DNA from: Eimeria praecox
Lineage: Eukaryota
Assembly: GCA_963920595.1 (NCBI GenBank)
Contig: OY986949.1
Location: 310,001 to 374,000, forward strand
Direction of reading: 5' to 3'
DNA: 64,000 nucleotides
The notes under the pieces were generated by a model, which did no database searches, was not told the origin of the DNA, and was given only the letters and a program-made list of their open reading frames with translations. Shown here in pieces: positions 3,001-56,127 of this stretch. Numbering within the stretch: the first letter of the stretch is position 1; every line of letters starts with the position of its first letter. A program made the position numbers and the translations under genes.

Positions 3001-3190
3001 AGTTCATGAATGCATCCTTTAACCTCGCAAACTCAACAAATTCCTCTGCTTGTTTTGGGCAACCGTTGAAGTCAGCATGGTTGCTCTTAGAAGAGTCCGC
3101 TGCAAAAGCAGAAGTAGGAAGCCGTTGGCAGAATGAGCTTCTTGGACGACCACAACTCAGAATGTGGCATCTTCAAAGCCGAGCCCTTCG
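1..3190. repeat. Third copy of the same block (1-1030 matches 17697-18726; 1040-2530 matches about 20940-22470; diverged match to about 23115), without the 550-bp expansion
   Basis: The window begins TGAGGAAGAGGATAAGATTCTGG, as at 17697 and 24496; matching ORFs at 106/17802/24601 and 1477/21392. Confidence 0.93.
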
Positions 3191-5387: not shown

Positions 5388-5473
<86 letters not shown>

Positions 5474-7904: not shown

Positions 7905-7967
<63 letters not shown>

Positions 7968-29386: not shown

Positions 29387-29539
29387 TCAAGCGTTTGTTT
29401 CTGCAGCTATCGTTGCTGCGAGTGTTGGTACAGATGCATGTCGAGCGCGACCACTACTAACACGGAAGCTCCAACGTGTTGCAGACGGAAAGGCTTCCGT
29501 CGGCTCTCTGTTTCCCACGCAGTGGCTAGAGGGAAGCGA
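29387..29539 (-). CDS. Candidate conventional (possibly terminal) exon after the micro-exon array: SLPSSHCVGNREPTEAFPSATRWSFRVSSGRARHASVPTLAATIAAETNA*
   Basis: Strong pyrimidine-rich acceptor TTGTTTCTGCTTGTTTCTTGCTTTAG ending at 29540 on the minus strand, about 560 nt past the last 3-nt exon; phase-0 frame open for 50 codons to TGA at 29387-29389. No recognisable homology. Confidence 0.25.
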   Translation of the reverse strand, partial: SLPSSHCVGNREPTEAFPSATRWSFRVSSGRARHASVPTLAATIAAETNA

Positions 29540-30097
29540 CTAAAGCAAGAAACAAGCAGAAACAATCACAGGGGCGTGGTGAAGTTGAGGTAGCACAAGA
29601 AGCATTACGCCAGTATTTGCTGGCGCGTCGCACACTCAAACGCTTATGTTGCCTGCTAGAGCTCTACGTCCCCATCTCCTGGGGGGCGACGGTGCAGCGT
29701 CAGCCCTGGAAATTTCTTTGCAGCATTATGCACTCCCCGCCTCTAAAAGGCTTCCATCATTCCTATATTCACTAGTCCAGGATTCAACCAAATGAAAAGC
29801 GCATACTAAAAAAAGCGCAGTGCATATCGGAAGTATCAGCTCTTACTGAAAGAGCGTCTGCTACGCTCGCTTCATACGCGAAGAGCAAGCCGCACAGTGC
29901 ACCAAGACGCACATGAAATTCGCACATGCCATTTTGCAGAGCTCCTTTTCACAAAGCCAGCACTCTCAGACACTCTCTCCAGCATCTATCAGCTTTGACG
30001 CTCATGCAAGGCGTTGCTAGCCGTGCGCCGACGAACAATCACTCAGCCTTTTTCAACTGGCCGTCTAGCTCATTTCATTCGAGTACATCAAGCTTAC

Positions 30098-33000
30098 TGC
30101 CTGACCAGCACGAAGTCCCGCTTCCAGGTTTGCAGTACAGGTATATGAAGTAGATCACTTCATATTCATATTCGACGGGGCATGCAGCCTATACTTTGCT
30201 CTTACGCCCTTGTTCTCGCCCTAGGCCTATTAAATAGAGCGTACTGCCTGTTGCATGGCATCCCGTGAATTACACAGAAATCTTGTCTCCATTTCTGAAA
30301 TGTCAGTAGGCTACCTGTACTCAATTCCGATGCAAACAACTGAAAGACCCTCCATACGGCTGGGTGCAACAGACGGAGTGGCGGGGGGCTGCCATCAGGA
30401 CTCCCCTTAGAGCACTGGCATTTGCATGCGCTCGAACTTGATACCGCCTAAAATTCCTGCATACCAAGTCGGAAGCTCGCCCTATTTCTCTACGCCCTGT
30501 GTGTTGGCCACACGTACTAACTGTTGCACAGAAAACGCAAAACTCTACGCTGCTCTGCAGTTTGTCGTGTCTCCGAACAGCCTGTTAGGTTCTCATTAAG
30601 CTTACGTCCCCCAAAGTAAAGAATCATCTCAGTCACTTTCCCCTGTCTATTGGCTACAACCATCCGCACTGGCTGACGGAGGCGTGGGGAAGACTTTCCA
30701 GCCTTCCCAGCCATCCTCCGAGCCAAAGCAGACGCTCATGTTTGGAGCATGCAGCGTACTAGCTTATGCAAGAGGGTCGATTGTTCTTATTTTACATGCA
30801 TTCTATCCATTTCTTGCCGCTGCCTTGCATCCAGAATATTAATAGGCTGTGCATCGGTGAGACTGCTCATGAAAAAGATGTGTCTGAGATATGTGAAAAC
30901 ATCTCTGTCTATTCGTGGCCACTAATCACAAGGCGCTACTGAGCCCTCAATCTCGCTAGCGCAAAATGAGGAGGGAATCAGCTTTTGCTCGCATTCAAGG
31001 CCTTGCACGGGGAGTCAATATATAGTTTAAACGTACTGCCTATTGTATGAAATTTCCGCCTCGCGAAACAGCACAGTCTCATGCCTCAACCACGCTTTCC
31101 CAAATCCGTAAGCAGCATGCAGGAAATACTAATGTGCAATCTAAATATTTCAATTCAACAAAAAATGCCCAGAACAAGCAACAGCACGTCCTTACAGGAT
31201 CATCTTAAATTGATGCAAACGACACAATTCCTGCTCGAGTATTGGTAAGAGTTCAAACCTCCCAAGTACATCTGGGCTGCAGCTTAGATGAACAGTGCAC
31301 ACAGCTATATAGCTGACTAACGGATGTGACATACTTGCTTCAGTATGACGCATTCTCGAGCTTAGACCATCAGTGACACCTACTACACTCACCGTGTTGC
31401 AAAACCAACGTCACTTCCTCAACGCATCGAAATCTCCCTCCTTCAACGCTAGGCCCTCTTTAAATTTTCCAAGCTTCTTCTAAAGAGCAGCAAATCTCCC
31501 CAGTTGGCGTACCATACTGATTCTCTGCGGGCTCCTGGCCTCAGCTGCACCCTTTAACGCATGAGGCATTCGCATTAAAGCCATGCAGCACTTAGCGCCG
31601 GCTAGCAAGACTGCTTTGTTACACACTTGCTGTAACGAAGGCAATGTATCATCCCCCTAAAACGAGAATAATCTAGGTACGCTATCTCTGGTGGACGCTG
31701 CAGGGCATATTCATGGCACATCCCGCAACCCAATCTCTTATACGAGGGAAAGCCACAATGTACAGCAGCGGGTTAGAACTTCAGCTATTATTTCCACAGT
31801 CTCAATGCTCCTCATCGTAGTGATTAGTCGCACCATCTAGTATGTACCGCTGCTGAACCGCCATTATAGATTTTGGCATCTTGGCTATCAGCCGAATCGA
31901 AGCCTTGGGCTATCGCCTTGTCTGGCAGAAAACACAAAGGTCACTGCAAGACAACATTTCAGGGGGATATGGCGTTATAAGAAGGTAACAAACCAAAATT
32001 TTTGGGTTCACACGGTGCCTCTGTTGTATGTGCAGCACACAGTAAAGCGTGCGCTAGACGGCTTCCAACATTCGAGCTGCTGCTATAGTCAACGGCAAAA
32101 TTCTGGGATGCATGCCTCATAGGTCCTTCTTACCGCCTGATGCGTGCAATATACCTGCTATAACAAAGAATGCCTGGTCGTCGCTCTCAAGCATGCTCGC
32201 CTAATGCTTGATGCTCATAAATTTATGGCCCGTTTGGTTATTACTCCCCCAATCATGCATCAATCATGCGCTAGAAGTACAACCAACTACAAGAAGAGCG
32301 CTTCCGGCTAAAGCAATGCTCTAGCAGTGTAACCTGCATGAGCCTAAGCGTGCGTGAACCTGAAAACAGCCGTACGTCCTTTTTACACCATCGAATGACG
32401 GTTTACCCACCGTGGCTTGCCGGCAACCCAGCCGCGCTTCCCTCATGGATTTGACTGAAAGAGGCAATGCCAAGTATGGAGAGCAACATCTAGGCAACTG
32501 CTTGTTCCTCGAATTTCCACGTGATCAAGGGATTCTGATGTTAGCGTGAGGCAACTGAAGGGCACCCAGTCGGCCAGCTGCCTCATGCGCACTCTCTAAG
32601 TACCTTGCCACTATATCAAGCCTATTCTATACTGCACGGCACTAGTCCAATCCATTCGGTGAACTTTAGAGCAATATTCGAAGGGGCATGATGCTAGCTT
32701 CAATCATGTGGGGGGCGCTACAGCACTTCTTCCATATTTTGAGTGCTTTTAATGCATTCAACGCCTCCCAATTGATCTTCTGTTCCACGAGATTCATATC
32801 TTCCTCCATGATTCCAGAGTCCCAAGGCGTATTTGGCGGCTTACTGCCTGATGCACACAACCTCGGTAGTGTCCCCCCCTGCTTCGTAACCGTGGCGCCT
32901 TTGGTCGAACAGTTCGAATAGAACGGAAATGGAACTGTGCGGCGGCAAGGAGAAAAATCCTCAGACCAGCAGGGTTCTTGTTAAGGAGCTGAGCCGGCAG

Positions 33001-36000
33001 CGAACCACGTCGCGTCCAATCACAGTAAGACAATCCAGTTCAAATATACGTCCACTGAACGGCTCGTGCTCCCGCTGCAAAGAGCATGCTTTCAGAAATA
33101 TATATCCACTGAAATGCTTGTGTACAAGACCGGGGTTGGAATCATACTTTCTGGTAGGTCGCACTCCCGTCCCCCCCATGGCACATGGGCACGCCGGTTT
33201 CTCACCTGTTAGCCATTCCGCGACTGCTGAGCGCGCGAACAGATAGCATCTTGTGGCACCATTGACCGCTGAAAGATGCATCAGATTGTTATGGTCAAAA
33301 ATGCGCCGCGTGTTTGGCCATAACAATCTGATGCATCTTTCATCCTATTCGCATGCCAGAAACATGACAGGTTCTGAATGCTGAAGGCAGCTCTGCCGCA
33401 AAGCAAATAAAATGCTGCATATTTAAAGCATGCACGCGTGAAATACAACTTCGTCTAGAATTTACGCGTACCTCCTGATGCATGCCATTGCTGCGTTGCA
33501 ACGATCTGCAGTCCCTCTCTCTCCCTTTCGGAGCCACACAATTATTGTACAAAACAGGAAATTTATCAAATAATAAACGCAAATGCTGCCAGTAGCCATG
33601 CCATCTATGAAACATTGAATATTGAATTGTTGAGATGCCATGCTCACCCGCTGATATACCATAGGATTTTAGTTCTCTCGCCGCGTGCTGCAGTTCCAGA
33701 ATCAGCCTAAATGTTTCGGCCTGCGCGGATCCCACGAACAACAGCGACGCACAAAACTGCTAAATTGCCCCTCCGCCAGACGTTATGCTCGCTAAAAGTT
33801 TTTCAGGCCCATTCCTTCTGATGGACCACTGAGAACATCTGTTTTCTCAGCCAATTCAGCCGTCCACGGGCTATGCGGTTCACACATACCTCCTAATGTG
33901 CAGCACTCCCCTTATGGTGCATGCCCCACTGTCTGAGCGAGCTTTTGAAGAAGCCCACCTTACTGGATAGCGAAGCCGGTTCTCGTAAGCAGGCTGCCAC
34001 AATTCTGCTGAAATGAAAGGTCGCCTTGCGTTTCAGAAATGCTTCGGGATCTCTGTATATGCCCATTTAACAAACAAAAGGGTGTGGGCAAGCACCATGG
34101 AGATCGTCGCACCCTCTGATGCATTGCAAGCCTACTGAACCTCGATGTGCGCTCATCAATTCACATCAGCAACAGGATCATAGACCAGCGTACGTGTAAA
34201 CAAGAACCTTCAGTCGCACAACAGCGCTTTTGGAACAAGGGTACTGGCGTTACCTCTGCCAGCCGCATGCCAGTGTCCCTTTACTGACGTGGTGCGCCTC
34301 TGCAAACACATTTGGTGGTTGGATGCCTCGAATGCATTGCTGGAGAGCTTACCAGCTTATGCACACCGCTTTGCCTACTCCACAACGCACATTGTCTACG
34401 CACATTTCAGAGGCACATCCATGATGGATGCCCAGTTCACGCCCCCGGAACCTGAATTCGGTCCAAAACGACGTCACTCAGCCTATGCATTAAACAACAT
34501 GTTCGTCGCGATCGAGGACGGTACGCCCGCCTCCTGTGCGTGGTAGGATGCGTTGAGCTATGCAGCAGTAGCACCGATGGAATTCTTGTTCACGCCGTAC
34601 TGCCTGGTGCAAGAAGCGCTTGTACACTCATTGCACTCTTGTACCACAAGTCTTTCGAAGCACATCCCTAGTCAAAATTTACAAAACGCAGGAGAATAAT
34701 CCCGCAGGGGCAAACGGTGCGCTTGAGAAGGTCCGCCAAAGACGCTGCAAGCTGCAGCAATCATGCGCTTCATCTGAAAGGCCATAGGATCTTGACTGCT
34801 TGGAACATTCTCGCTTCGCAGGTCTTAAAGTCAGTCGTACTGCCTAATGCATGGCACTATTACTCGCACCTATTGAACTTCCCCCAGCATCATCTTCGCC
34901 TGCCACAGCAAGAAGGCAGTTTCTCACCGGCAGAGCCCAAGAATACTCAAAAGAAAAGTTGTGACTTAATTTACCACACGCTGTGTCACTCTCGCTTTGG
35001 CAGTATATACACTTACACAGTCCTATAGGGATAAGGGAGAGCACGACGTATTTTAAGCGGCATCACAGCATGTCGTGTGCGCCTTACCAACAGCCTGCGC
35101 TCACCTCCTGAGTCATCACAGTCCAGCTGTACCGCCGTGCGCGGTGACGTCTAGCCTTGAATTGCCTCGCAAGATGCCAACGCGGTTGCTACCGGTCAAT
35201 CACCACGAGCGAACCTGCACGCAAGGTTCGGCAACTCCTGGAAAACTAACAGCTTGCCTCTCAAGCATGCAGGAGGTCCGCTGACACTGAATGCCTGCGG
35301 GAAGCTTTATTAACTACCAACAAGGCGCGGCATGCAAGACGCCCGGCTGTGGCCTACTAGCTGATGTAAACCACCTTCTTGCTGTAGAGCCTTACATCAA
35401 CTCGCGATTTATTAGCCGTTGGCAACCCATATTATAAATGCGCCAGCGGCTACGTATCGCAGTCCAACCAGATTGGTGCTCGCCTGGAACATGCAGCATT
35501 ACCATTTTGGCATATGATGCCCTACCACTTTCCCTCTTGCACCCAGGGCACTCATTTGGGATGCTATCTGCCTACCGAAGCCTGTTTTAACACTAAGCGT
35601 CCTTGAAAATCAGTTCAGTTAGCAGCATACTGTCTGGTAAGCCACACCCCCTGCACCGGCACAGCACATCCACAGCTCATCCCCTTTGGCCACGCCAACC
35701 TTCCCCTCCAGCATCTGCTGGCAAGGTGTACCGAGAAACCATATGTGATAAAGAAGTGGCACAAGTGTCCTAAACGCAGTACCGCTCTGTGTGGCAAGCG
35801 CCTCACATTCAGACCCCAAAACAGTTAGGGAAAACGCACTACCTTGCTCATGCACGTGGTTGAGAGTCCGAGCGTACGCCCTGTGAACGATCACGAAGCA
35901 GCGCTCAAATGTAGCGCTTTAATCAAGCACGCCGGAAACTCACCCCATTGCCCGTTTCCATGCAACTACGAAACAGCGTACTGCCTAATGCATACAAAAC

Positions 36001-39000: not shown

Positions 39001-42000
39001 ACGGTGTGCTTGGCCCCTACGTTTCCTGGCAGTGTCAAACATGCTGCGATCTTTGCACTTCAACTGCATGCGCCGTCGGTTTTGTCAACACAGTTTAGGG
39101 ACCGAACACCAAACATACTTTCTAATGGGTGGCACTAGCCAATATCGATGCTTGCAGATAGCGTCCCACATCCGCTCCTCCCACGGTTGACTGCCCAACA
39201 CAGCATGTCTAGTGTGAAACAAGGCACTCAAGACTCGACTGGTCGGAAGATGCTGGGGAGCACCCATAGCGGGCTCCAACTCGCACTTGCATGCGTGCAA
39301 CACTGCAGAAGATCACCGATACCAGGCCACTATCGCAAGTTTGGAGCAATGGAGATTCTGCGGTAATGAATAGGAAGACGTGGGGATCGTAGCCAAGCAT
39401 TCGGTGTGAGCCTGTGGGGAACGGTCTCGAGTGCAGGTTTTGGTGACAGTAGCAAATATTTAAGTGAGAACATTGAGGACTGAAGTAGAGAAGGGTCCCA
39501 TGTGGACAGCAATTGGGCATCGGCTAGCGGGCCCTAAGCGAAAGCATAGCTGCGGGAATTTCGGGGCTTTGCTGCCCTCGTAGTTCGCGAAAGGGAGCCG
39601 GGATAATATTCCTGAGCCAAAACGCTGATACGTTACGGTGGCGTGAATGAAATCGTCGACGCAGGCGGGTGCAACGGGAAGCGTTGTCTTTGCTTGTTAA
39701 CAACCTCTTCACATATATATCCTGCAATCAGACTGTATGGGGACAGGTTTGAGAGGTTGGTAGAGTTTCCTGGCTTTCTGGGAGTCCGGTTAGATTTCCC
39801 TAGCATCCTCTCTGATACATCCTTGCTTGAGCATAGTGAAGAAAACAAACCTACCGCCTTTTTGTGCAGTGCATACGCCTATCAATTTAGTCGGCTGACA
39901 TTTGCACGCGGCCACCCATTCGAGTCGCCGAATCACCGGTGTTGCAATCACTATCCTGCCGGCATAGCCTCCACCATACACAATTTTTGGAGGGCACGCC
40001 TACTGCCTGATACGTGACGCGCAAATACCGCAAGAGCGTGCTCATTAATAATACACACAATGCCGCCAGTGCATTCAGCAGGCCAGCACTGCACTCACCA
40101 GAGCCTCACAAATTGCAGCCCCAAGCATACAGCGCCACACAACCGGCGGGGAGAGGGCTTTGCAGATGTGTAGTGCCCTGTCCCGGCGTCTGCAGCACTG
40201 GAGCCACAATTTAACACAGCAAAGCACTCTTCAGTAATTCCGTAGACTCCTGGAAGCCCTTTGAGCTACGGAGTTTTGCATCGTGCATTTTGCGCATGCT
40301 CACGTCCTGAATCCTCAGTGCCAGCTCCCGCCTCACGGCGGTCTTGCTCGTGTTTGCCACTAAGCCCCTCTTAAAAACACTCAGTGGCCTGCACTAGCCA
40401 TTATGCACCGGCAATTTAGAGGATGCGGGTGCAAATCGCTAACAACCAGCAGCTCCCCCTTGCACTCGCGCAACACTGTCGATTTTGCCTTGGGATTTCC
40501 CTAGCATCCTTATACTCTAGGATAAATACGTGCTTGGGCGTAATGAAGCGAAGAAACCTACCGCCTTTTTGTGTAGCTCATGCGCCTATCACTTTAGTCG
40601 CCTGAAGTTTGCAGGCGGCCACATATTCGAGGCGCCAAATTCCCGGTCTTGCAAACATGATGATTTTGAGTACTAACGATAACTGTAATAGGGAATAACT
40701 TGCATGAGCGGCTCAGCCGCGCGATGCCCATCAGCTGGCTGTAGACCGTTGAGAACACCAAACTACAGCCTTCCCGAGCATCCACTGTTAGGGTGCAATC
40801 TCTATGCTGCCGACATAGCCCGCACCATATACGATTTTTGGAGGCCAAGCCTACTGCCTGATACGTGACGCGCAAATACAGCAAGAGCGTGCTCATTAAT
40901 AATACACACAATGCCGCCAGTGCATTCAGCAGGCCAGCACTGCACTCACCAGAGCCTCACAAATTGCAGCCCCAAGCATACAGCGCCAAACAACCGGCGG
41001 GGAGAGGGCTTTGCAGATGTGTAGTGCCCTGTCCCGGCGTCTGCAGCACTGGAGCCACAATTTAACACAGCAAAACACTCTTCAGTAATTCCGTAGACTC
41101 CTGGAAGCCCTTTGAGCTACGGAGTTTTGCATCGTGCATTTTGCGCATGCTCACGTCCTGAATCCTCAGTGCCAGCTCCCGCCTCACGGCGGTCTTGCTC
41201 GTGTTTGCCACTAAGCCCCTCTTAAAAACACTCAGTGGCCTGCACTGGCCATTATGCACGGGCAATTTAGAGGATGCGGGTGCAAATCGCTAACAACCAG
41301 CAGCTCCCCCTTGCACTCGCGTAACACTGTCGATTTTGCCTTGGGATTTCCCTAGCATCCTTATACTCTAGGATAAATACGTGCTTGGGCGTAATGAAGC
41401 GAAGAAACCTACCGCCTTTTTGTGTAGCTCATGCGCCTATCACTTTAGTCGCCTGAAGTTTGCAGGCGGCCACATATTCGAGGCGCCAAATTCCCGGTCT
41501 TGCAAACATGATGATTTTGAGTACTAACGATAACTGTAATAGGGAATAACTTGCATGAGCGGCTCAGCCGCGCGATGCCCATCAGCTGGCTGTAGACCGT
41601 TGAGAACACCAAACTACAGCCTTCCCGAGCATCCACTGTTAGGGTGCAATCTCTATGCTGCCGACATAGCCCGCACCATATACGATTTTTGGAGGCCAAG
41701 CCTACTGCCTGATACGTGACGCGCAAATACAGCAAGAGCGTGCTCATTAATAATACACACAATGCCGCCAGTGCATTCAGCAGGCCAGCACTGCACTCAC
41801 CAGAGCCTCACAAATTGCAGCCCCAAGCATACAGCGCCAAACAACCGGCGGGGAGAGGGCTTTGCAGATGTGTAGTGCCCTGTCCCGGCGTCTGCAGCAC
41901 TGGAGCCACAATTTAACACAGCAAAACACTCTTCAGTAATTCCGTAGACTCCTGGAAGCCCTTTGAGCTACGGAGTTTTGCATCGTACATTCTGCGCATG

Positions 42001-45000
42001 CTCACGTCCTGAATCCTCAGTGCCAGATTCCGCCTCATGGCGCTCGTGCGCGTATTTGTGAGTCAGCCCCTACCAAAACCATCTAGTGGCTTGTATTAGC
42101 CGCTGTGAGTCAGAGACGAAGGGACGGAAGGAGGAACCGGCACGGTTAGGACGTGCGGCATTTAACGTCTCAATCTCGCTGATCGGTTTTGCACCTGAAA
42201 TCTTCGCATATCAGCTATGAAGTTTCAGACTGATCGTTTATACCAGCTTGTGCATGGAGGATATTCCCGAACTGTGAATTCGCATTCAAGCGCCTTCTGC
42301 GACAGCTGCTTCTTCGTGGCCTACAATAGATCCACAACACGTACAGGTGACAACTGCAGAGATGCTGAGTTAGCAAACCACATACCTGTGAAGCATGTGT
42401 AAGGCGCCACAGCAGATGGTTAATATGATCCAAAGCTCTCTACGCTAGCAAGGCTGCATGCTACCTGGAAAGCCGTCACTGCTTCCTGTGCAAAAGGCAC
42501 ACACTCACACATCATCAGGACCTAAACTCAATCATTCGTCCCAACTCGCTATATTCTGTCGGGAAGACAATGCCCTTCTTGCGGAATGACCAACGTAATC
42601 AAAGGATTCCCCAGGATGGCTTGGTATCAATCTTTTATCAATCTTTACACGCGTTCGCGGGGAATTGTGCTTCCATGCGAAGCAGCGATTTACCGTGCTG
42701 CGCGCTGCACTGAAACCCTAATTGCATGCAATAAGGGTAACATATGGTTGCTGAAGCTTGAATGGCTCCTCAATTACAGCCTGCTGCTCAACCACCCCCT
42801 TGAACACACAAAGACACGGGCGTGAAGCAGAGGCCGCGAGCAGCTCTCTACTGTCAGCTGCTAGAGACAGAAACGTTCAAGATAGCAGCTACAGATTTGT
42901 GACGGACATCTTGTGTTGCCAAATGCCATTCAACACGTTTCTCACTTTTGTAATTAAAAAAGCATGCTTCCTAAATCACCGCTTAGAGAGACACCACATC
43001 AATGCCAGTCTCACCGGCTAGCGATTTGGATCATCAAAAGTGCACGCCCGTGTCTGGGAGGAAGCCAGCCTTCACTGGATACGCTTCCATCATTCGCTTC
43101 CGTTATGAAATGGCCTCTATTAAAGGAGCCCTAAATTGCGCAGGTATTCAAGCTGTTCCCGAAATACAGGCGAATGATAAAGCTAGGAATCAAACCTAAT
43201 CGCCAGCTAAAAGTCTGACAAAGCTGCATCCGAGCACAGAAAAATTCATAAATAAACGAGACACAGGAGTAATTCCTCTGCGCACTGCCATTAGTTCTCC
43301 TGAGTGAGCCACACAGCCCTACGGCATGGTGCTTCAAGTGAACAAACATTCATTTGAAGCGCACGACTGTAGGGAGGCGCTTGCCCATGATTGGTCCCAT
43401 TACAGGGATTAAGCGTACTGCCTGCTATGCGGTACACCCGTGATGCCACAAATGCAGCACCCTTCTGCATTTGTTCACAGTTCCTTAATGAAGTACCAAC
43501 CTCTCTGCAAGCTTGAGTGCCAGCATCCTTACTGGAAAAGGGTAATACCCAATAAAACCCCTGTGAGGCTTGGGGACCGTTGTCCTGCAGGCAAACGTTG
43601 TGCCTCTCATGTTTTACACCCCTCAACGTCAACGTCACTTTGCCCTCTTTTTAAAAGAATCTGGCATTTAAATTGCTTTCATGCAAAACCCTGTATAGGA
43701 AGCGAAAGAAAATGCTGGATCTTTAACATCAAGCTTCCATACATGCCTGAATGTGAACGGCGACCCGATGAATGCTGCAAAACCCACGGCAGCCCAATGC
43801 ACCAAACGACGCCCCTCAGACCAGTAAGGAAGGCGTACATCTCAACACGCATTGCATTAAGCTTCTGGTCTGGCACAATGTGCTAGAGGTTCTTGTTCGG
43901 TCGCTTCATCTTCGGGCCAAGACCCGCCCTGGCAAGTAAGCCAGGAACTGGAGAAGATCAGCTGCATGGTCAGTAGGTCGGTGCTGCTTTTTTTCCTATT
44001 TCTCTGGCATACTTCACCCTCTACCGATTTTAGGCGTAGGAAGAGACTCGCTGCTCAGCCAAACCACTGCTCGCAGCTCTATATTTGAAGAAATGAGCAG
44101 TCGTCAAGTGCTGCTGTGCCTTGTCGGGAATAACGTGACAGTCATTCAGACCAAGCGCAATACGCGTCTAACGACAAAGGAGCTTGGGAGCACCCATGCA
44201 GCCAAAGTAAAGGCCCTTGAAGCCGTTTTCTGCAATCGCTAACTACCCTTTCACGTTCATCATATGCGCTGCGCATGACGTAATATTCAGTCACGCCCCT
44301 GCAGAATGAGCGCATGCTTCGGCCTCCTTATTTGCGCTCAAGCATGCCCTGTGAATAATAGCCAGGGCGAATATTCCCTGACATCCCTTCTTTCTATGGA
44401 AATGTGCTCCTTATAAAGCAAACGCAATCGGCTGCTTCGATTTTGCCGCCAGAAGACAAAAGCATTCGAAAGGATGAACGTGCTAAAAACCTCCTAGTGT
44501 GTAGCGTTTGCGCATTATCATTCGCTTGCTCGTAGGCGCGGCGGGCGCACACGCCGCCGCGCCTACGCACGCCGCAAATTTGCCACTGTTCAAGTGTGAT
44601 ATTTGCACTCACTCTCTGTTGCTTGCATGATACTCATAGAGCGGCGAACCATGCCAAAGTAAATATCTTACTGAGCCTGTCGGAAAGCCCATGATTCCTA
44701 TTATGTGTCTCAGACACTACTTAAAAAGGCAATATATGTATTGAAATCATCTATTCTTCCATTCAATTAGCCGGTTGAAACCATGCAGCCGCTTATCTTT
44801 ATGCCTCACGTTTGCAGCCCTGCGCAGCCTGTACTCTCATCACTGCTCAAGCACTGAGTGCTGCTGCACGCAAGGAGTATCAGCAAATAAAGACGTGGAG
44901 GCTCTCCGAAAGCGTCAACGCGGACATATTTCCACCAATGACCTTGTCAATCGAACGTTTCAGATTGGCTAGTTGAAGGCTGCTCTACAGAACACAAACC

Positions 45001-48000
45001 GGAAAATTCAAAGTGACGGCAACTTAGCCACGTTCTGCAATATCCGCATACAGGACGTGCTGGAGCAAGCAAGTCGTTCCAACAAACAACTCCCTATAGG
45101 CTCATCATATGTGAAGGGTGAATCTGCAGGCTTGGATCTGGAGCAGTTCGCGGGACAACTTCCTGTCCTATATCGTTCACAGTGCGTACCTTACGCATTG
45201 GATTATACGAATCATTAGCTGGCTGGCGAGGCGGATTGCTTGCCGTTGCAACTCACGTCCTGGAAAATGGTACACGTAATACAGTTGAAGCTGCTATCTA
45301 ATGAACAAACAGTTCAGAGAAATGGTACACTACAGTTCTCTCCAACTGTTGTAGCTTCTCCCGTAGCAAAGCCTCAGTTTTCATGCCGCTTTTTCGCCGC
45401 CCTGCAAGGTCTCCTCGCACGGTCAGCCTGCAATTCCATTATCATCTAGTATCCGCTGAAGCACTATTTGTGAGCATCGTGCAGGGAGGAAGCCTACTTC
45501 CTGTTGAATGGGTTAAACCATCACTTTTATTTGCCAGGCATACCACCCAAGGAAGCAGAGAGCTTCACTCACAATGTGTTAGCATGAATTCACGCATGCG
45601 ACGTCTGCATTCAATTAAACTGTGGTCATCGTCTGCATTCGTAGGCGCATTCCTCTTTCCCCATAGCCCAAGTGACATTGTCGATTCATGCATGCCCACA
45701 GGCTAGGCATTAAGCTTGGAGAAGCCGCCTATGTAAAAAGCCTGAATATCACGCCTACGTCCTGCTTGTCAGTGCGCCTGTCGAGCACTGTTCCTCTTTC
45801 GTTCTGCCCTACGCAAGCTGAAACCCAAGCGTAGCCTCACGAAATCGGTGCGGACAGACGAACATTCCTGCTCGCTTCTACACACACAGAGTTCCACCGC
45901 TTCGCCTCGCACCCTGGAGTGTATCAAATGCCGCTGGCATCTTGTGTCGTAGGGGGTGTGCATGTCTAGTAATTAGTATACGTACTGCCTAATCAATCAG
46001 CTTCCCCTAGCGCTGGAGACGTCCGCGCTCAAATTACTCTCAAAAACGCCGTGCCAAATGGCAGTGCTTCAGGAACATGTTAGAGCAGGCGTTGCATATG
46101 TTATCAATTATTAAATGATCGTGAGCACGAAAGCAGCAGCAGCAAGGTGTCCCAGGTACGCAGCACAAGATATTTCTAGTTGAGGTCTCACAGTGTTAGT
46201 TGCGTTATCAACACTATCCCGGCCCTTGCAAACTAGGAGGTCAGTTAGCAAGCCTTCAGGCGCCCCTGGAGCACTCAAAAGTGGTTTGGAGCCAGTGCAT
46301 ACTCTCTGAAGCACGAGCATTCCGAGTGCCCTCAGTGCAAACCGCTTCTCACCAGGCATTCATTATCGTCATGCGCATCGTTGTCTGTCCGCGTCTTGAA
46401 CCCAGGTGAGGGGGCAGATATTAACAGGCGGCGTTGGTAAGGGTTGGTCCCAACCCTCAGCTAATACACAACCAATCGCCCCATGAATGCATGACACGCT
46501 TACACAGTGTCAAAGATCTTCTGAATACATGTATATACATGCCTAGCTCCCAAATGCTTTGAAAGCATCCCAAGAACGACCAGCACATAATGCAGGCTTA
46601 CTGCCTGATGCATGACACCCCCACACTAGACGTGTGCCCGCGTGGCGGCCGCATGCCCTAGCATCACGCCACGCCTACTCTAGAAGAAGTGCGGATATTC
46701 GTGTGCAAACAATTCTAACTCGACGTTCCTCGAGCATACGGCTTCAGTACCATTCTCCTGCGCTGCCACCCACCGAAAATGCTCTCCCCTTCGTCCCGAA
46801 TTCCACGCATTTTAAAGCTTGACTCACCAGTGTGGTGGCACGTATCTTGACACTCACAGCCTAAGGCACGATGCTTCCACACTACAAGTGTATATGCCTG
46901 GTCTGTCTATCTGCTCGCTGCGGTTCCGCAATTCCACAGTGTGACTTATCAGGGAGCAACACACGCATACACTGAAGAAGTAAAGGTAAACTTGCGTTGG
47001 CAAGCGGTATAATTGAAGCTTGGGAGTTAGTTTCCAGGTAAGGTGTCAAACATACTTCCTGACGCACGAAATCCCGAAGCCTGCACGATTCATTCCATCA
47101 CTCACCCCTGCTTCACAGTTCCCAACGCAGGCCACTTGTTGAAGGTGGCCACACACGCATGAATCGAGCTCAGCAGGTGAGGCGGCATCTGCTCAGCTTT
47201 GTGCCGCTTTCAGTTCACGAATCACATTATGGACGATTCCGCACACCTGCACTGACGCCCCAAAGCTCTCCGTTACCTCCGAACAAGTGCTCGTCCATTC
47301 ATTCAAGAGCTCAAGCCTACTGCCTGGTTCAGTGCAGTTTTCCTTTGTTGGCATGCACGCACGCGTGCCACTCGTCCAAATAAATTGGTTACCATACAGA
47401 GCTTCCCAGGCAAACAGTATAGCGTGGGGAAACACCTATCAGGACAGCAGACGCTTCCGGTACGTGCTCTTGCAGGCTTTCGAATACATTGCAGCTAAAC
47501 CAGCCAGCACTGGATAATTTCAGAAGCCTATTCGAGCTTTCACATGTTACGAAACACCTCGTGAAAATTGTCAGATATGTGACGGACTGTCTGATAAGCA
47601 AGTATCATGTAGGGATAGCGTGCGTACTTGCCTTCTACCTCTTCAGCCTATCGCTGGCCGTGCACGCTAATGCTCCAGGCAAACGCCAGAGGCCTTACTT
47701 AATCTGTGGCCTTGAGTACAGATGTGCCTAGGATCCGCATCAGTGACATCCTGCAGGCACTGTGGCACAACGTCTGGCACCATCAGAACACAGAGAGCGA
47801 GCATCATTTCAGGGGCCTGGCGCAATCGTCAGTTTAATTTCAGAAAGCAGGCTAAACTCACTGCCTGGAGAATAACACTTTGAGATACTCCCGTACAGCC
47901 TTGAAGCTGGCGAGTTTCTCGTCCGTCGGCCGCACCGCCCAGGCACACGCTCAACCTATCCTTTGCCGATAGGCAAAAGTGGTTAGAGCGCAGTGATCAT

Positions 48001-51000
48001 GAAATACCTGCCTGAGAAATTAAACTAATTGCTTGTCTACACTGCTCCGACTCCACCGAACAAGTTTTCTGTTTAAATACGAAACACGCGCACCATCTGA
48101 TTAACGATAATCAATATAAAAGGCTGCCTCACCGTGGTCTCGGCAGAGAATGCGCTTGGAAAATGTAGAAGCACCCTCGTCAACGCACCACTGCTGACCC
48201 ATCTGTCAGCTCAAACACTTAACCATCCACGGCAGGCCACTAAAGACCCTGAAGTATCTAATTGGATCCACAGAGCGAAGCATCAGCGTTTGCCGCTTGC
48301 TGAAACGTACCGCCTGATGCGCAGCACCCGCCTACTGCCACAAAACACGCTGGCATCTTCTTTATCCTCCATACCATCAGGTTTAATCTGCTTGACCAAA
48401 TGCAGGCTCGTTTCAAACCAATAAACCGTCTGCATGTAGGATGAAACACGCTGGCATTTGATACTTTTCGCCTTCCCATTGGCACGCGCCTCAGTGCTGA
48501 ACTGTGGCACACTTGTTGAAGAGCCTCATCACGTTTTACTTCGTCCCCAGAACTAATCGCGGAAATCGGAATAAGCGCAACTATAGTACATAATTCATAG
48601 ATCTTATTCACAGTCGTAGCGTATGGGCAAAAACCTGCATGATAGCAAGCATACTGCCTGATGCATGGGACTAATCCGATGCCACATTTTATGCTGGTTT
48701 TCTATATGTGAGGCGTCCGACAGTGGGGAGAATTCAGTCCATCAGTCGCAAATGCCTCTAATAATATCCATTTCTTGCCCTCTATGTGAGAAGGTAGGCC
48801 TGGTCAATCCCCCATGCGTTCAAAACACCAAGGATTGAAAAAGCATCGCGGTGAAGCCGCAGTATGGCATCCAAGACAGTAGTTATATGCAGCATGCGGG
48901 GGTCGAACATACATCCTAGTGCATGGCACGAACTTGCTGCATAGGCATGCAGCACTAGTCGATGGTTCTGCCTATTTCCCGCACGTCACACATAAACGTC
49001 CTAACCGGCCTTAAGCACTGACAAAGCTAAGCGGGGCCAACGAACATTGTGCCTACAAGTGATGCGCCATCTTCTGCAGCCAGCTAGGGCCGCTTTTCTC
49101 TGTGCTCCATTCGCGGCAACACTCCCACAGAATAGTATGCGAGGCCTGGCCATTTCAACTTGTTTTCTGGGCAATCGTTTTGGTCTTACACCAGCATGCA
49201 CGCCTACCGCCTGATGCGTAACCCTCGCGCATTGCCACAGCGCAGGGCGTCTGCCATAGAGTAAGCCGGGCCTTCTTATAAAAAAGCTTTCACTGTAAAG
49301 TGGTAAACCCATTAATCAAAAGGGCGAACGAGCAAGAGAGGCCATTCTCAAATCAAGTAATCAAGATAATCAAAAGCATTCAAGCACCGGCGGGAAATCC
49401 CCAACGCTATTGTCGGTCAACGTAGGACTCTTCAAGGTGCGCAAACTGCGGCGCAAGCGTACTGCCTGACATAGAGCAGTCTACTACTACCGCAGTGCTT
49501 GCTGCGTGCTACGCATCAGCCACAGCTTCGCAAAGCGCACCCAAGGTGCCTGCCTTTATTCCATTGTGTCTCTTCCCACCCATCGTGAACAAACAAACAA
49601 TGGACTGCATAATTGCAGCGTCGTGTCCTCATTTTAACAGACTCCTCAAATCTGCGTACAAACATGGTCAAGCACTCTTGCTGCAGTTTTCCGATGTGCT
49701 CAGCCTAGACGTGAAGCGTACAGCCTGATGCATCACGAAGCATAAAGGGTGTGTGCCACCACGCTTGATGCCCGTGTAGTCTAATACAAACGTGCAGACA
49801 ACATTTTATAGGGGGAATAAAACTAAAATTCAGTAGAACAGGAAGACTCTCTTTGCGTGCAGAGTACTCCAACATTACAGTCCCGGTGCTGTTAAGTTGC
49901 CACACGTAACCGACAACACCCATAACCGATAACGCCCAAAACAGATGTACTGTTATTGGTGGTAAACCTTACCGCCTAATGCAAAAGCCTTTCACATAGC
50001 TGTAGTGTATATTTGATCCTTTCAGTTAGCCACACCTCTGGTGTCCGCACTCGATTCTGATGAGGAAGCTCAGGCGCAGTGGTGAATAACCACCCTAAGC
50101 ATGTGGTATGTGGGGAGAGGCCTAGCACCACCGCTATATTCCCATACTGCTTTTTGCAAATGGATTTAAAGGAATCCCACATTGCAGGGCCCCCAAACAC
50201 GGCCCCTGCTTTCCCAATTACCCTCCAGCCGCTGCCTGCGCTCAGGGTTTAAAGGTCAAGCGTACTTGCTGTTGTATAGCATTCCAGACTACCACGCTGC
50301 ACGTCGACACTTGAAGCATACGCACCGCTCTCATTGCTGATGGGCACGTTTTGTTACCAAGGATCAGTTTCAGCTGGTGCCTTGCATCCTGATTGGCTCT
50401 AGTATTCAATGAGGCGCATTTAGCAGTCTTTTGTCTCCTACAAATTTTAAAGTACAGTATGCCTTCGCATTTAGACGTCACTCCTACCACCTGAAGTATC
50501 ACATCCCCCTTCGGCTCGGTGAACACATGCACTTCATTCGTCAGTGAAGAGTCAGTAGCCATTCGAGGTGCACACACATTCATAATCGTCCCAGTTAGCA
50601 AAGGCTGCACTGCCAAATGCTTAGGAGTCCACGGCACCCCCACACTTTAGTTGGGTGGCAACGAAGATGTCCCCCAGCAGCTGCTTCTACCTCACCCGCC
50701 TGTAGGGTAACCGTACTACCTAGTTGATAAATACCTCTACTTTCCACTGTACGGCAATGCATTCCATCATTCAACCATTCCTTTGGGTAACAAAGTGCTC
50801 GTTCGGGAGCATCCATCCCCAATCATCTAATCCCGTGTGTCACGTGCAAGCACTGAATCTCAGGATAGTGCATTATTGTGAAAATGCCAATAACGTAATC
50901 ATAACAACGTCGCACGCTCCATCTATCTTCTAATTAAACTTCCAGGAATCCCGCATTTACGCGTACTGTCTGCATGACGCTTGCATCTTGACAAGATTTC

Positions 51001-54000
51001 CCCCTGTTCATTACTTTGTAGTCAGCCTCACATAATCAGCAAAATGAAGTACTCCTGCAAGGCTAAAACCTACGTGAATTCGACTTCCAACAAACGATAT
51101 GTCCACTCCCTGCCGGTGCAGATTAATAAGCATTGATACTATCTCTGGAAAATACAGTAGGCACTGCAAGGCTTTACACTTTCGCTGGAAGCCTGCTAGG
51201 CTTGCGGCTCACTCCAACACGCCAGATTAATTAGGCTATTGCCTATATGTAACATGTGCTGACGGTGAGGCAAAACGAACCTCCTGTAAAACGAATATCT
51301 GCCATGTGGCTTGTTTCTTGTCAGCATGCATGGCAGTTCCAGACAAATGCAAGCATGATCTGGCACGTTATTGGCCTACCTACCACGCTGATGTACTTGA
51401 GCTCTGTCGCCACTATTCCAAATGATTCAACAGGGGTGTTGGTAGACAGTCCAGCGAACGTGCTGACCAAATAGCTCTCACACACGACACTCGAGCCTAA
51501 AAGGCAGCCACCTAGGTTTTTGAGAGGTAGGGGAAAGCACGGGAAGAAGGCTTTATTTGGGACAAATAAAATCCCCAGTGAAACAATATTTTCAAGATGC
51601 ATGATATAATCCTGCACGTTTTGGTAAGCAGATGTTAAAATGCAGTGAACAGAGTGCGCGTCCCCCTGCTGCCTACAGGGCATTGTCATCAGCAGGCATC
51701 CGCGTCTCCATCATACTACATTGTTAGTCGCACTTTGTGGTCCATATAATACGCAAATGAAACCCTCAAGGTTTTATTGCCTGCTAGACAGTGCCAACGT
51801 GCTGACAATGAAAATGCCGCGTTCGCGTATGCAGGCTCCCGCGAACGCGGCAGAATCACGCAAGGATGCCACAACCCAGATTTGGGAATGCGACTATCGT
51901 CTTTACCTCGTTTCACCTGCCATCCGCCTCGAATGCCTTTAGCCATCATCTGCCTATGCTGCAGCATCGCGCCGCACGCTCCTCCTCACACTTTCCCGTA
52001 AGCGCATTATCTCCCTGTGCTTAGCATAGACAATTTCATCCCACAAACCCTGACGCCTACTATCTACGTATAAACACATTCCAGTCCGGCACTACTCCTC
52101 TTGCGGCTTTCTGTCAGTTTTTGGTGAATGCAGGACCGGGCTGCTATGGAGGGACTTCACAGCTAACGCATCGCAGGAACATAATCTGCCGTCCGACAAC
52201 TTCACTAGAATATGGATAGGAGGCTTTTTGCGGAAAGCGCACTTTCTGTAGAGCATTGATTTACCAAGTATTGGGCTCTACTGGATCAGATGCTTCAATG
52301 AACCACATCCTGATTCCGACGGAGTTGCCACCACTAAGGATATTTCTCCTTTTAATTTATCTTCAAACAGTGAAGTTCCTTTTACCTGGTTGGAGGCGCC
52401 ATTGCCAGCACATACATTCACTGATCTCTATATAAAAGGCAACACAAGCCCCACGAAGCGCCGGGCTAGACGGAAGGCTCATGATAACCTACTACATTAC
52501 TGTCTGCTGCATCACTGTCCACAGTCCTTGTAAGTGAATCCCTCGCCGCCACCTAGGACGTTAAACCTGCCTGATCCAACTTGGAAACAGCGTCGCAGAA
52601 GCTTGGGGTTTCAATTCGGTTACGCAAAACCTTGGACACCCTCGCAATCTTGCTGGTACAGTGTAAGCGAAAATATTCATTCCGGAGCACTCTACCCATA
52701 CGTCTCCCCTCGCAAGCTACCAAGGCGCCACCAACTGTGTTTATTGTTTTGGTCCGGCAGAAAACCCCATAGCGCAGCGTGGCGTGCCTGTGAAACTTAC
52801 AGCCTGTGCAAGTGGCAAGATTTGACGCGCTCTTGCATGCATGCATGCTCTATCTGAAAGGTATAAATGCATGCGACTGTGTCCACCCGCTTGCTTCAAC
52901 ATTGGCGCTCAGTCTCTAAAGTGTACTAGAAATCTGTTCCTTTTTACGCAGCTACGCACTGCCTGCAGCTCCGAAATCCCCTTTCGGTTCGCACCGCAAG
53001 CAGTGTAAACAAGCAGTGTGGCAATGACTGTTGCTGCAACGAGTCATTTATTTCCACCGCTGTCTGTGTAGCCGTAACCTGGCTCAAGGGCAACGGTCCG
53101 CCGGAAGTATCGAAACGCAGCAGCATGCGGAAGTCTCGAGCGGAACATTCTACAGGACGCCCACACTTTGTGTAGGTAACCCCGCATATGCTCACCATCT
53201 AGAGGCATGAGGAATTGTGCTACACATCTAAATGGGCTCATGCAGGCGGTACTGCACCACGGCTTCTAACGCATTCGCAACAAAGATCGTTCAACGCATT
53301 GCTACATACCAAGGACAGACTCTTCAGGGCTGGCCCCAACTGCCAAAGAGTGGTATTTAATATGCCTAAACTGCTCCAGTTCCCCAAAATGTTTCTGCAC
53401 CGCTGTAGCCTCGCCAGACCACTATGCGGATAGAAGCGCCAGCACGCCGATTTAACCAAGAATGGGTTGATGCGACTCACTACCCTATAATCTATGGCAG
53501 CTGCAGCATACTTCCTGCACAAACGTTATGCCGCGCAGTTGTGTTCCGAATAGGTGAGGCCAATACCCAATCCTTCACAATAAATATGCCAACCATTCAT
53601 CAACGCGTAGGCTGACGGACTCGTTGTATAGCAGCCACGCAGCTTGTCATCATAGCAGTGCTGATCCTTGCTTGATCATACTGCCTGCATCACGATATCT
53701 GTGAACTACATGCTGCAGAATTCAGCCAAACTATACGACAATGATACGGCGGGAAACGGCGTTACAGAGCTTTCGTCACGCTGCTTCCGCTTGGCCTCAC
53801 TGGTTGTACCATACTTTTAACCTTGCCAATGAAGACGTGTTTATCATGTCCTTGCCTGGCTTCTACACGTAAAGGCCCGTCTATCTCAACCAAGAAGCAA
53901 CCGGCATGCATTGCTAGACGCCCTAGCCTGCGAACCGTGGGAACTCCCGTATGTACTGGCGCATCGTTTCATGCAGACGCCCTCGCTAGAGCCACAAGCC

Positions 54001-56127
54001 GCTCTGCTGCATCTCCCTGCACAGCGCTGCTTGTTATCCTATACCGGGACTTCAGGCGCCGTACATTGAAAATGCGTGGAAAACGTGGAGGGCACGCGCT
54101 ACAGTTAAAGCCGGGAGGCACTCTGTTGATTCGTGTACCATGCAGCACACAATCGTGCTCAAGCAGAGCGTTCACTGTTCGTTGAGCGGCTACCACTGCT
54201 TGCTACTGCGGTTTATAGGGGGAGGCCCCGTACTGGTAATATGATGCCTCACGGGCAATTTTTCAAGTTTCCGCTGTTCCCCCAAACCCTGATAATTAGC
54301 ATTCCCGATATAGCTTCGCCCCCTACCCTACCGCTTGCCTACATTCTGTGTAGCATGAGGTCGGATTGTACGGCTATTCGTGCGCTGATATTCATATACA
54401 TGCTTTAGTTCCCATACTGCCAATATACCAGCAATGCCTTGCGCAGTCAGAGGACAATGAGCGCAACAGAGTGGTTGACCTGTTCAAGGCTAACGCTATA
54501 ACCCTCCTGAGCAAGCACGCACTTTCTGTAGCAGCATAAATGTGTACTGGATGCTGCAAAGCTGAGCCCAAATGCGCGAGAAAGGTACAGTCAGATATAC
54601 CGTTTGCAGCAGCTTCCACGATGAGCTCAGTTGATCCAATGCGTCATATCATGCTTCCACCGCTGCCAAAGGTGGGAGCCCTTTGCCTCAACTGGCTCTT
54701 AGCCACCAAAACCCCTCCATCGCACTCGGGATGCGAGTGGTAGTACGCGCACACAGCGGCATACCAATCTTCAACCCTCGATTTTGTAAATCGTACAAAC
54801 TCGCACATGTTCTGCAACACCGCTCCGTGCAGAAACCCACGCTAGAGCCGCGGGTGGGATTCTGCTCCATCACCCTCTATTACCACGCCTGGTGTTCTAT
54901 ACAGCACCTCTGAACCATTTGGTCCAAAACGTTCTGAACACCGCACTCTGTACCAATAAACACGTACTTCCTGCGGAGAACGCCTGCCACTGCGCGGCAA
55001 TCGCTGGTTTCAAGCCCCTGTGATGCACAGCTGCCTTCACATTTCGGGTAGATTCTTCAGGGCGTCCTATACAATAGCAAACTCCAGTCTAACTGCATAT
55101 ATCGGTTCTTGTGGTCATTAACTAGAGGCGTCTACAGGCCACTGACATCTATGAGCGTACTGTTGTCACAGAAGTCTTGCAGCACAAACACGTTCGAGGA
55201 TCACAAACGCAGCTTTGACGCCATGTCAGCGTTCCCACCTACAAAGAGCGTGAACTTCCCCAAGTACGCGCAAGGGACGGAACATCCACTGCATACTGCC
55301 TGTGTAGGAAGATACCAGAGTGCAAGTCCAGAGGCAAAACTCTAAAACCCCCATACAACCCACACTCTCTGCATCGGCCGCTTTGAGACTTTCCAGGGCT
55401 GCACTCTCCAAGCGGGTTCCGCAAGGAGGACGCCTAGCGCTCTATGAAGCTCACCAGCCATTCTTAAACACCAGCAAACGCTTGTAAGTCATCCTGACAC
55501 AATATATGTCAAGCTCGCTTACGCCTACATTGGGAGTCCATTTGCCTGCATGGTTCGTGGACAGCCTAACTAACATTCACACAGCAACTGCCACGGATGA
55601 GCGAACTTGTTGCAATGGTTTGTAATATGCCTAATTCAACTACAGCGAGCGGTCAACCTAACCTAACTCTGCACAGCAACGGCTAGTATTCATCGTTCGA
55701 TGCGCAAAACACAGCCAAAAAGGAGAGCAAAGCTGAGCAAAGCTATTGTGCACGTATAGTAAAAACTCGCGAAGCAAATGTAAAGTCACATAATTGAACC
55801 TGGTGTGAGCTCTGTCACGTACCAAAAAGCAAAACCCTGCCTACCGTACTCTTCCTCTCCCACCAGTTCACGGACAAAACAACGGTCATAGACAATCTGG
55901 ATGGCCAATATGACACAGTGCAGCATAGCGACGCTGCTGTGGACATTTGCGAGCCGCCGGGAAGTATGCAACGAAATGCTGTTTAGAAGTGAGGCGTTAG
56001 GCCGCTCCTGGTCCCGTGATGCTCTATGTTTGACACCAGACCACGGCAAATGTAGGCACCCCCCCATCTTCCACTTCGCGGTAGGTTCAGCAAGCGTGCA
56101 CTACAGACAGTACCGCAATCTTACTTC
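30098..56127 (-). CDS. Putative micro-exon gene segment made of about 85 single-codon (3-nt) exons; predicted Ala/Glu/Arg/Asp-rich alpha-helical low-complexity protein (partial; termini not located)
   Basis: Minus-strand AG|NNN|GT sites, given as lowest coordinate and codon in transcript order: 56125 GAA, 55297 GCA, 54968 GAA, 54523 AAA, 54343 AAT, 53682 GCA, 53512 GAA, 53196 ATG, 52960 GCA, 52801 GCT, 52501 ACA, 52243 AAA, 52061 ATA, 50967 ACA, 50717 GTA, 50488 GTG, 50266 CAA, 49973 GCG, 49722 GCT, 49463 GCA, 49208 GCG, 48913 GAT, 48655 GCA, 48311 GCG, 48094 ATG, 47862 GCA, 47588 ACA, 47321 GCA, 47056 GAA, 46858 GCT, 46602 GCA, 46303 AGA, 45986 GCA, 45759 GAC, 45498 GAA, 45257 GAC, 44613 AGA, 43419 GCA, 43015 CCG, 42778 GCT, 42006 GAC, 41706 GCA, 41413 GCG, 41155 GAC, 40855 GCA, 40562 GCG, 40304 GAC, 40004 GCA, 39855 GCG, 39119 AAA, 38865 AGG, 38770 GCG, 38496 CGA, 38229 GAA, 38051 GCA, 37383 GCA, 37123 CAA, 37019 GCG, 36778 GCA, 36534 GCA, 36253 GAT, 35982 GCA, 35840 GTA, 35631 ACA, 35358 CTA, 35105 GAG, 34841 GCA, 34601 GCA, 34353 CTG, 34113 AGG, 33890 GAG, 33648 CGG, 33472 GAG, 32845 GCA, 32593 AGA, 32376 GAC, 32134 GCG, 31834 ATG, 31627 CAA, 31335 CAA, 31037 GCA, 30760 CTA, 30518 TTA, 30245 GCA, 30098 GCA. 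A few may be chance matches and some exons are probably missed in the gaps. Confidence 0.72.
39790..42100. repeat. Tandem repeat with 851-bp period (about 2.5 near-identical copies plus a diverged, shortened partial copy)
   Basis: CCTACTGCCTGATACGTGACGCGCAAATAC recurs at about 39999, 40850 and 41701; the ORF track repeats at 40014/40865/41716 and 40594/41445. Confidence 0.95.
44531..44567. other. Perfect 14-bp GC-rich inverted repeat (hairpin) with a 9-nt loop
   Basis: CGTAGGCGCGGCGG (44531-44544) and its reverse complement CCGCCGCGCCTACG (44554-44567). Confidence 0.85.

Follow-up and report, generated by a model that had tools for sequence, protein, structure and literature searches.

About 97 acceptor-triplet-donor sites on one strand of a 64-kb window: a candidate ladder of single-codon exons

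Tens of alternatively spliced, codon-sized mini exons are described in the nank genes of the truffle Tuber melanosporum (PMC13449251, PMC4986451, citing PMID 22289772). The 64,000-nt stretch of DNA analysed here, referred to as the window, carries on its minus strand about 97 sites, spread over about 34 kb, at which a splice acceptor and a splice donor are separated by exactly one triplet, and the spacers between these sites are mutually unrelated. The first-pass annotation of the window, in which this ladder was noticed, stated that it knew of no gene built from dozens of single-codon exons in a row; the truffle genes show that statement to be wrong. The ladder resembles the truffle arrays in layout, a likeness that comes from DNA alone: both would have tens of consecutive codon-sized exons per gene, each of which could be skipped without a change of frame. 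It is unlike them in its ~97 putative exons over 34 kb, its long unrelated introns, its predicted low-diversity, helical coding and its host, which is probably not a fungus. The nank genes are given as NACHT-ankyrin NLR genes, whereas the 64 kb gave no NACHT or ankyrin exon (Pfam search of 50 open frames; the gene probably extends past the window).

Three other systems invite comparison. Micro-exon genes (MEGs) of Schistosoma mansoni are described as having 10–20 exons, mostly of 15 bp, introns of 0.1–5 kb and a signal peptide, with exon lengths quoted from 3 or 6 up to 81 bp (10.1101/2023.06.21.545858). Like the ladder, they string together short, frame-symmetric exons, with lengths in multiples of 3, and separate them by longer introns, an arrangement that gene finders overlook; the ladder units, however, are all of 3 nt and four to five times as many, which places the locus outside the exon sizes and numbers given for MEGs. 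Isolated 3-nt microexons are reported for mouse Ncam and Drosophila TnT (PMC8042270) and also for plants (PMC8831610). These share with the ladder the exon length and the steric problem posed to the spliceosome (PMC10250204), but they lie singly between normal exons, whereas every neighbour in the ladder is also 3 nt long. The UGC near the acceptor of SRRM4-dependent microexons has a counterpart in a TGC consensus at −8 to −6 in the ladder, which is only a lead, TGC being generally enriched in this DNA. Recursive splicing ratchet points, as described, are juxtaposed acceptors and donors (a zero-length AG/GT) along a long transcription unit (PMC8605326); in the ladder the zero-length arrangement is not enriched (6 sites against 84 with 3 nt), and each step would leave a codon behind. 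In the literature searched, which takes in few subscription journals, the truffle array was the only one of this kind found, with none in apicomplexans and nothing that has ~100 units, introns both long and unrelated, or an apicomplexan-like host. Single-codon exon arrays are already known; new in this one are its size, introns that are long and have fully diverged, and a probably coccidian-like host.

Between positions 30,000 and 56,200 the minus strand holds 84 strict YAG-NNN-GTRNG sites. When the number of nucleotides between acceptor and donor (k) was varied from 0 to 15, the counts were 6, 9, 10, 84, 11, 12, 7, 16, 5, 5, 5, 7, 8, 5, 12 and 8, while the plus strand gave 2–8 sites per k and 4 at k = 3. 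The spike that the first-pass annotation had anticipated was thus present at k = 3 and on the minus strand only, and no other exon length was enriched among k = 0 to 60. The level expected by chance at k = 3 was 10.9 ± 3.7 under an order-2 Markov model (maximum 21 in 60 runs), 12.4 from the independence of YAG and donor counts, and 18.2 ± 4.0 (maximum 28) under an order-5 model, a control that partly learns the motif; the excess over chance therefore amounts to ~72 of the 84 sites. The first-pass annotation had put the strict sites at about 74, an undercount, and the chance expectation at 6 in 26 kb, roughly twofold too low, whereas its figure of about 85 exons agrees with the curated model and all five of its quoted examples were exact, its position numbers denoting the last exon base in plus-strand numbering. 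Its boundary at 56,127 proved too short: the ladder continues with 12 more strict sites in 56,200–64,000, against ~3 expected. Two DNA sequencing runs of one sample, which may be the window's own source, covered 30 of 30 bins of 36,500–56,400 with error-free contigs of up to 5.7 kb, and because they reproduce this interval an assembly artefact is excluded.

For the exon model, eight strict core sites with a weak flank score or close to a neighbouring site were dropped as probable chance matches and nine relaxed sites were added, giving 85 core exons (76 strict, 9 relaxed) and 97 in total with the upstream 12. Site 39857 was included through homology to two other repeat copies and not by the midpoint test described below. 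A few errors in either direction are likely. Coordinates in the exon lists are the first exon base in plus-strand numbering, the exon extending two bases downward, and relaxed sites are bracketed.

30098..56127, minus strand: core ladder, ~85 putative 3-nt exons, median spacing ~257 nt, 62 of 84 gaps 200–350 nt
57025..63946, minus strand: upstream extension, 12 strict 3-nt sites, mostly 470–900 nt apart, up to the window edge
Upstream exons, minus strand: 63946, 63249, 62602, 62133, 61612, 61001, 60278, 59627, 58958, 58277, 57933, 57027
Core exons, minus strand: 56127, 55299, 54970, 54525, 54345, 53684, 53514, 53198, 52962, 52803, (52503), 52245, 52063
Core exons, continued: 50969, 50719, 50490, 50268, 49975, 49724, 49465, 49210, 48915, 48657, 48313, 48096
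Core exons, continued: 47864, (47590), 47323, 47058, 46860, 46604, 46305, 45988, 45761, 45500, 45259, 44615
Core exons, continued: 43421, 43017, 42008, 41708, (41415), 41157, 40857, (40564), 40306, 40006, (39857), 39121
Core exons, continued: 38867, 38772, 38498, 38231, 38053, 37385, 37125, 37021, 36780, 36536, 36255, 35984
Core exons, continued: 35880, 35633, 35360, 35107, 34843, 34603, (34355), 34115, 33892, 33650, 33474, 33150
Core exons, continued: 32847, 32595, (32378), 32136, 31836, 31629, (31337), 31039, (30762), 30520, 30247, 30100
Dropped strict sites, minus strand: 55368, 45702, 41991, 36712, 35650, 33932, 30672, 30516
32845..32847, minus strand: example 3-nt exon, TGCATCAG then GCA then GTAAGC
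33472..33474, minus strand: example 3-nt exon, TGCATCAG then GAG then GTACGC
45257..45259, minus strand: example 3-nt exon, TTTTCCAG then GAC then GTGAGT
46602..46604, minus strand: example 3-nt exon, TGCATCAG then GCA then GTAAGC
48913..48915, minus strand: example 3-nt exon, TGCACTAG then GAT then GTATGT

Intron lengths in this model range from 92 nt upward with a median of 270, and the 5' end of the gene probably lies beyond 64,000. In the largest core gap, a good acceptor at 43,531 on the minus strand is followed at once by TAA, without a donor. It is possible that this is an alternative or true last exon, which would divide the ladder in two; such acceptor-plus-stop words number 27 in 26–64 kb, so that chance is also possible.

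The YAG and GTRNG elements belong to the search pattern, whereas the AG-free zone and the other flank positions are independent of it. In a leave-one-out flank model, the k = 3 sites scored 6.0 bits and acceptor-donor pairs at other k −2.1 bits (n = 84 vs 94, p = 5e-18). True acceptors are expected to have an AG-free zone directly upstream. At positions −14 to −4, an AG was present in 15 of 80 core sites compared to 487 of 872 other YAG words (p = 1e-10, four repeat copies left out), in 2 of 12 upstream sites compared to 154 of 263, and in 6 of the 26 sites in the downstream region (1–30,000); for the upstream sites, the core flank model alone gave no separation from controls (p = 0.10). A branch-like RCTRAY motif starts at −56 to −53 in 9 of 85 sites, with at most two in each of 47 other bins, and the core acceptors show a TGCAT consensus in place of a polypyrimidine tract. 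Features of U2 introns are present at the ladder sites, namely the GT donor, R at +3, G at +5, the YAG acceptor and the AG-free zone, and apicomplexan introns are described as mainly U2 GU-AG (PMC12015288). A polyT close to the acceptor, as reported for most apicomplexans (PMC2483917), is absent from the ladder sites, which speaks against an apicomplexan host.

The spacing of the strict sites is also regular, with a median of ~257 nt and 41 of 70 gaps within 200–350 nt, compared to 20% under random placing. When gaps of 440–700 nt were inspected, the best relaxed k = 3 site lay at 0.42–0.58 of the gap in 9 of 12, two of the nine being repeat copies; for k = 1, 2 and 4–9 the corresponding figure was 20 of 84, some of these sharing donors with k = 3 sites.

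Read in phase 0, the triplets contain no stop, either among the 96 strict triplets or in the 97-triplet model, while phases 1 and 2 of the strict set contain 4 and 2, compared to 4.8 and 3.9 after shuffling. The 97-residue model comprises 37 Ala, 10 Glu, 9 Asp, 9 Arg and 7 Thr, with one Pro and one Gly. Helix formers account for 63 of the 84 uncurated triplets, against 49.9 expected by column shuffling (p = 0.0004) or 53.8 under the local trinucleotide bias (p = 0.02). Exon ends are usually AG. The triplets have A at the third position in 52 of 96 and C at the middle in 43 of 96, a composition that argues that they are not merely splice consensus. Gln and Lys codons were CAA (3) and AAA (4), with no CAG or AAG; this avoidance, which is not significant (p = 0.13), would be expected if triplets with AG at their end competed with the true acceptors. 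An in-frame stop is present in 86 of 89 introns. The amino-acid evidence for selection on a phase-0 peptide is moderate, so that the strongest argument for coding is the exact 3-base length, which appears to have been retained at ~85 sites over a time in which the introns lost all recognisable similarity.

The introns themselves gave little sign of common descent. Interiors of 40 core introns aligned to one another with a mean score of 69.6, compared to 66.0–67.7 for block-shuffled or outside DNA (sd ~12.5), with no trend with distance along the ladder; a small alignment excess between introns (20.8 vs 19.4) was of the size expected from base composition. Flanks of exons with the same codon were no more alike than others, no diagonal rose above the permutation null, and ancient homology was not detected, whether from intron to intron or from one half of the ladder to the other. 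Tandem Repeats Finder reported four short arrays in the whole window. The earlier description of the DNA as otherwise non-repetitive holds in general, the exception being an 851-bp unit present in ~2.5 copies, and only in this block are monomers alignable as in a tandem satellite. With three exon positions per copy, it is a recent example of ladder growth by block duplication. Because the introns show no clear homology outside this triplication, the ladder is not a young satellite. The last copy of the block adjoins a ribosomal RNA fragment of the large subunit (LSU rRNA).

39943..42101, minus strand: recent tandem duplication of the 851-bp block, 92–97% identical, two strict exons plus a probable third with an AAG acceptor
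39495..39835, plus strand: degenerate eukaryotic LSU rRNA fragment in one intron, Rfam RF02543

The fragment matched RF02543 with E = 5e-19, or E = 1e-46 on the local stretch, and its alignment reaches left to ~39,310. It indicates a eukaryotic host and is usable as a lineage marker; contig depth in its bin was ~60-fold above that of the locus. The letters of the fragment and the donor words of the ladder look coccidian, a green alga being another possible host.

Both DNA runs contained a lower-depth second version of 36,500–56,400, ~8–15% diverged, from another strain, species or paralogue. None of the changes listed, an uncontrolled subset with 40 out of 1,144 substitutions and 12 out of 57 indels, falls in an AG-NNN-GT core. 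At exon 46,860, positions −3 to +11 were unchanged, with the nearest changes at −4 and +12, for which the chance at that divergence is ~1/4 for this one exon.

Downstream of the core, the status of the ladder is less clear.

1..30000, minus strand: downstream region, segmental duplication from 1 to ~26,300, 26 strict 3-nt sites, status uncertain

The 26 sites compare to ~16 expected and many are duplicate copies; under a stricter filter that also removes AG-containing triplets, the k = 3 peak was absent from this region. It may be a sparser or decaying continuation of the ladder. Among diverged duplicates, the donor GT/GC of 3-nt sites was retained in 42 of 42 comparisons, compared to 487 of 641 for other donor-like words, the pairs not being independent. 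The duplications in 1–26,300 are nested, comprising 550-bp tandem units and blocks of 2.4–3.4 kb, with near-identical copies 6.8 and 17.7 kb apart, and at one 3-nt site the acceptor is retained in all seven copies while the donor alternates between GT and GC.

A three-exon version of the motif was also searched for in metagenomes, which returned at least 118 loci, 117 of them scored. Among the matches listed, 113 of the 117 were tandem repeats with near-identical flanks, so satellites are able to imitate the ladder pattern; the remaining four had 4–11 sites each and no ladder like that of the window, and blastn of the listed loci against the window gave no match. One locus (L056, contig Ga0307516_10053193, 1,420–3,960, minus strand) has ~32 tandem 81-bp units, each with a near-identical 78-nt intron-like spacer, pyrimidine-rich in its 3' half, and one variable codon. 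Its codons would spell a long hydrophobic run followed by four arginines, resembling a membrane anchor, and it looks like an independent, young single-codon-exon array. A 64–65-bp tandem repeat matching the motif was found in L075, L004, L070 and further loci of one group of metagenomes, with 66 sites and mostly Thr/Ala triplets in L075; it could be a plain satellite or another array.

On balance, the ladder is probably the middle of one protein-coding gene, composed of single-codon exons that are mostly included and are predicted to encode an Ala- and charge-rich alpha-helical stalk. The reading of the triplets as exons is well supported, though short of proven, by features that the first-pass annotation had not used: the flanks, the branch-like peak, the spacing fillers and the single open phase. 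Each spacer would be a U2 intron, recognised across the intron, one after another, since an exon of 3 nt offers too little length to keep the complexes at its 3' and 5' splice sites together. A similar steric argument has been made for microexons, with U1 and U2 complexes hindered on both sides of a tiny exon (PMC10250204). Recognition would act from one end of an intron to the other, and the introns would go one by one; once a codon had lost the intron on one side, it would form the tip of a longer exon, and a branch point near −52 would hold U2 off the exon. With most exons included, the mRNA would grow by a codon with each splicing event. Almost any intron, if retained, would stop translation, while exon skipping would drop one residue without a frameshift and with little effect on the helix, a cost of a single residue that would make the architecture tolerable. 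Growth may have proceeded by tandem copying of intron-plus-codon blocks, long enough ago that the intron interiors have lost clear similarity, with selection keeping the splice signals, the 3-nt length and the Ala-rich coding bias.

A further-reaching claim, advanced tentatively, is that the gene is ancient and constitutively spliced, with one exon for each of ~100 or more residues in a row and perhaps for every residue of the protein. Less than 1% of the span would be coding, the introns would be individually diverged and the architecture stable, in a non-fungal, probably coccidian-like lineage and possibly with a dedicated signal for microexon splicing, made up of TGCAT ahead of the acceptor and a branch point near −52. 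If this is true, such genomes hide a class of genes beyond any annotation pipeline.

Several observations weigh against reading the ladder as a spliced, coding gene. The acceptor profile of the core sites has no polypyrimidine tract, the branch-like motif occurs in just ~1/10 of sites, and AG is not depleted at −40 to −16 (1.86 vs 1.78 per site), where a simple scan from a branch point at −52 would predict depletion. The absence of phase-0 stops is weak on its own, with 0.3–1.1 expected. The helix excess disappears if every GCN triplet is left out (30 vs 28.1 of 49) and so rests on alanine, which could reflect an ancestral GCA unit. No amphipathic periodicity was found (p > 0.06 at all five angles), and an excess of opposite charges at i+3 (11 vs 1, p = 0.0015) is one of eight spacings and is seen in the curated set only. 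Among the downstream duplicates, other 3-nt sites have lost the AG in some copies, and retention of the whole AG-NNN-GY (37 of 42) was no better than at other spacings (84 of 104). The window yielded neither a start codon nor a terminal or conventional exon, and of 50 open frames picked for their length or for a protein-like composition none had a Pfam match at the curated cut-off, five matches lying below threshold (E 0.02–0.09).

The same exons might instead form a combinatorial diversifier in the manner of the truffle nank genes or schistosome MEGs, with subsets skipped to produce variant receptor or surface proteins. Frame-neutral exons throughout, the wide variation in splice-site strength, the weak AAG acceptors of several fillers, the precedent in Tuber and a host probably of a parasite-like lineage would all suit such a gene. 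It is nonetheless unlikely, given the low codon diversity (37 of 97 Ala), introns that are old and unrelated, with ongoing homogenisation not seen outside one block, and the finding of no NLR domain or signal-peptide exon in the window (50 open frames searched). Decay offers another account, in which a formerly spliced single-codon-exon gene is dead or dying: an rRNA fragment lies inside one intron, gaps are irregular near 42–45 kb and reach 1,194 nt, downstream duplicates have lost acceptors, and no gene ends were found in the window. The splice signals, however, are still sharp despite saturated introns, 62 of 84 core gaps are regular and none of 97 triplets is a stop, and we regard decay as improbable.

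It is similarly hard to credit that the exons are spliced into a non-coding RNA, or are read in phase 1 or 2. The moderate amino-acid evidence and the lack of a located start or stop leave some room for this, but the enrichment of k = 3 alone among k = 0 to 60 is consistent with frame keeping, and stops in phases 1 and 2 are about as frequent as after shuffling (4 vs 4.8 and 2 vs 3.9). Splicing might also be absent altogether, the sites being a DNA-binding box conserved within a satellite of ~257 bp that is itself ancient and degenerate. Regular spacing on one strand fits this, as does the ability of satellites to match the motif (the 113 of 117 scored metagenome loci, among the matches listed). 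Two words are also enriched in this DNA, GCATGC (75 vs 15.5 expected) and TGCATGCA (12 vs 0.9), the latter given as an apicomplexan AP2 (ApiAP2) binding motif (PMC4117751). The monomers are unalignable, however, with a flank score of 8.5–9 of 40 compared to 30–40 in most metagenome tandem loci; acceptor, donor, AG-free zone and branch-like motif stand in spliceosomal order; and the near-invariant parts are the AG and GT around a variable triplet. This last account is very improbable.

If the ladder is spliced as a coding gene, it would be an extreme natural test of how exons too short for recognition are joined, in ~96 consecutive steps of three bases each. The order of intron removal, the rates of error and skipping, and the cost of a ~34 kb transcript per ~290 coding bases could be measured directly from long reads. 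Published accounts present the truffle arrays as generators of diversity; an array that is old, has unrelated introns and reads as a low-diversity helix suggests that ladders can also persist as ordinary structural coding sequence. Since a scan for motif and spacing suffices to find such ladders, genome-wide surveys would be cheap and could reveal missing genes.

Some minor features of the window were also recorded. A protein atlas search of two open frames gave nothing usable. An open frame of 104 residues (24,290–24,601, plus strand), one end of which looks protein-like and helical, lies within a duplicated block and recurs at 17,491–17,802 and, in part, at the window start; it had no Pfam or protein atlas match. 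Inside one intron, at 33,270–33,342, there is a 73-nt near-perfect hairpin (self-match 90%) with weak miRNA-like scores in Rfam, far below threshold. Near 48,675, just upstream of exon 48,657, contigs have loose ends and depth is raised, which points to a short dispersed repeat or an insertion site.

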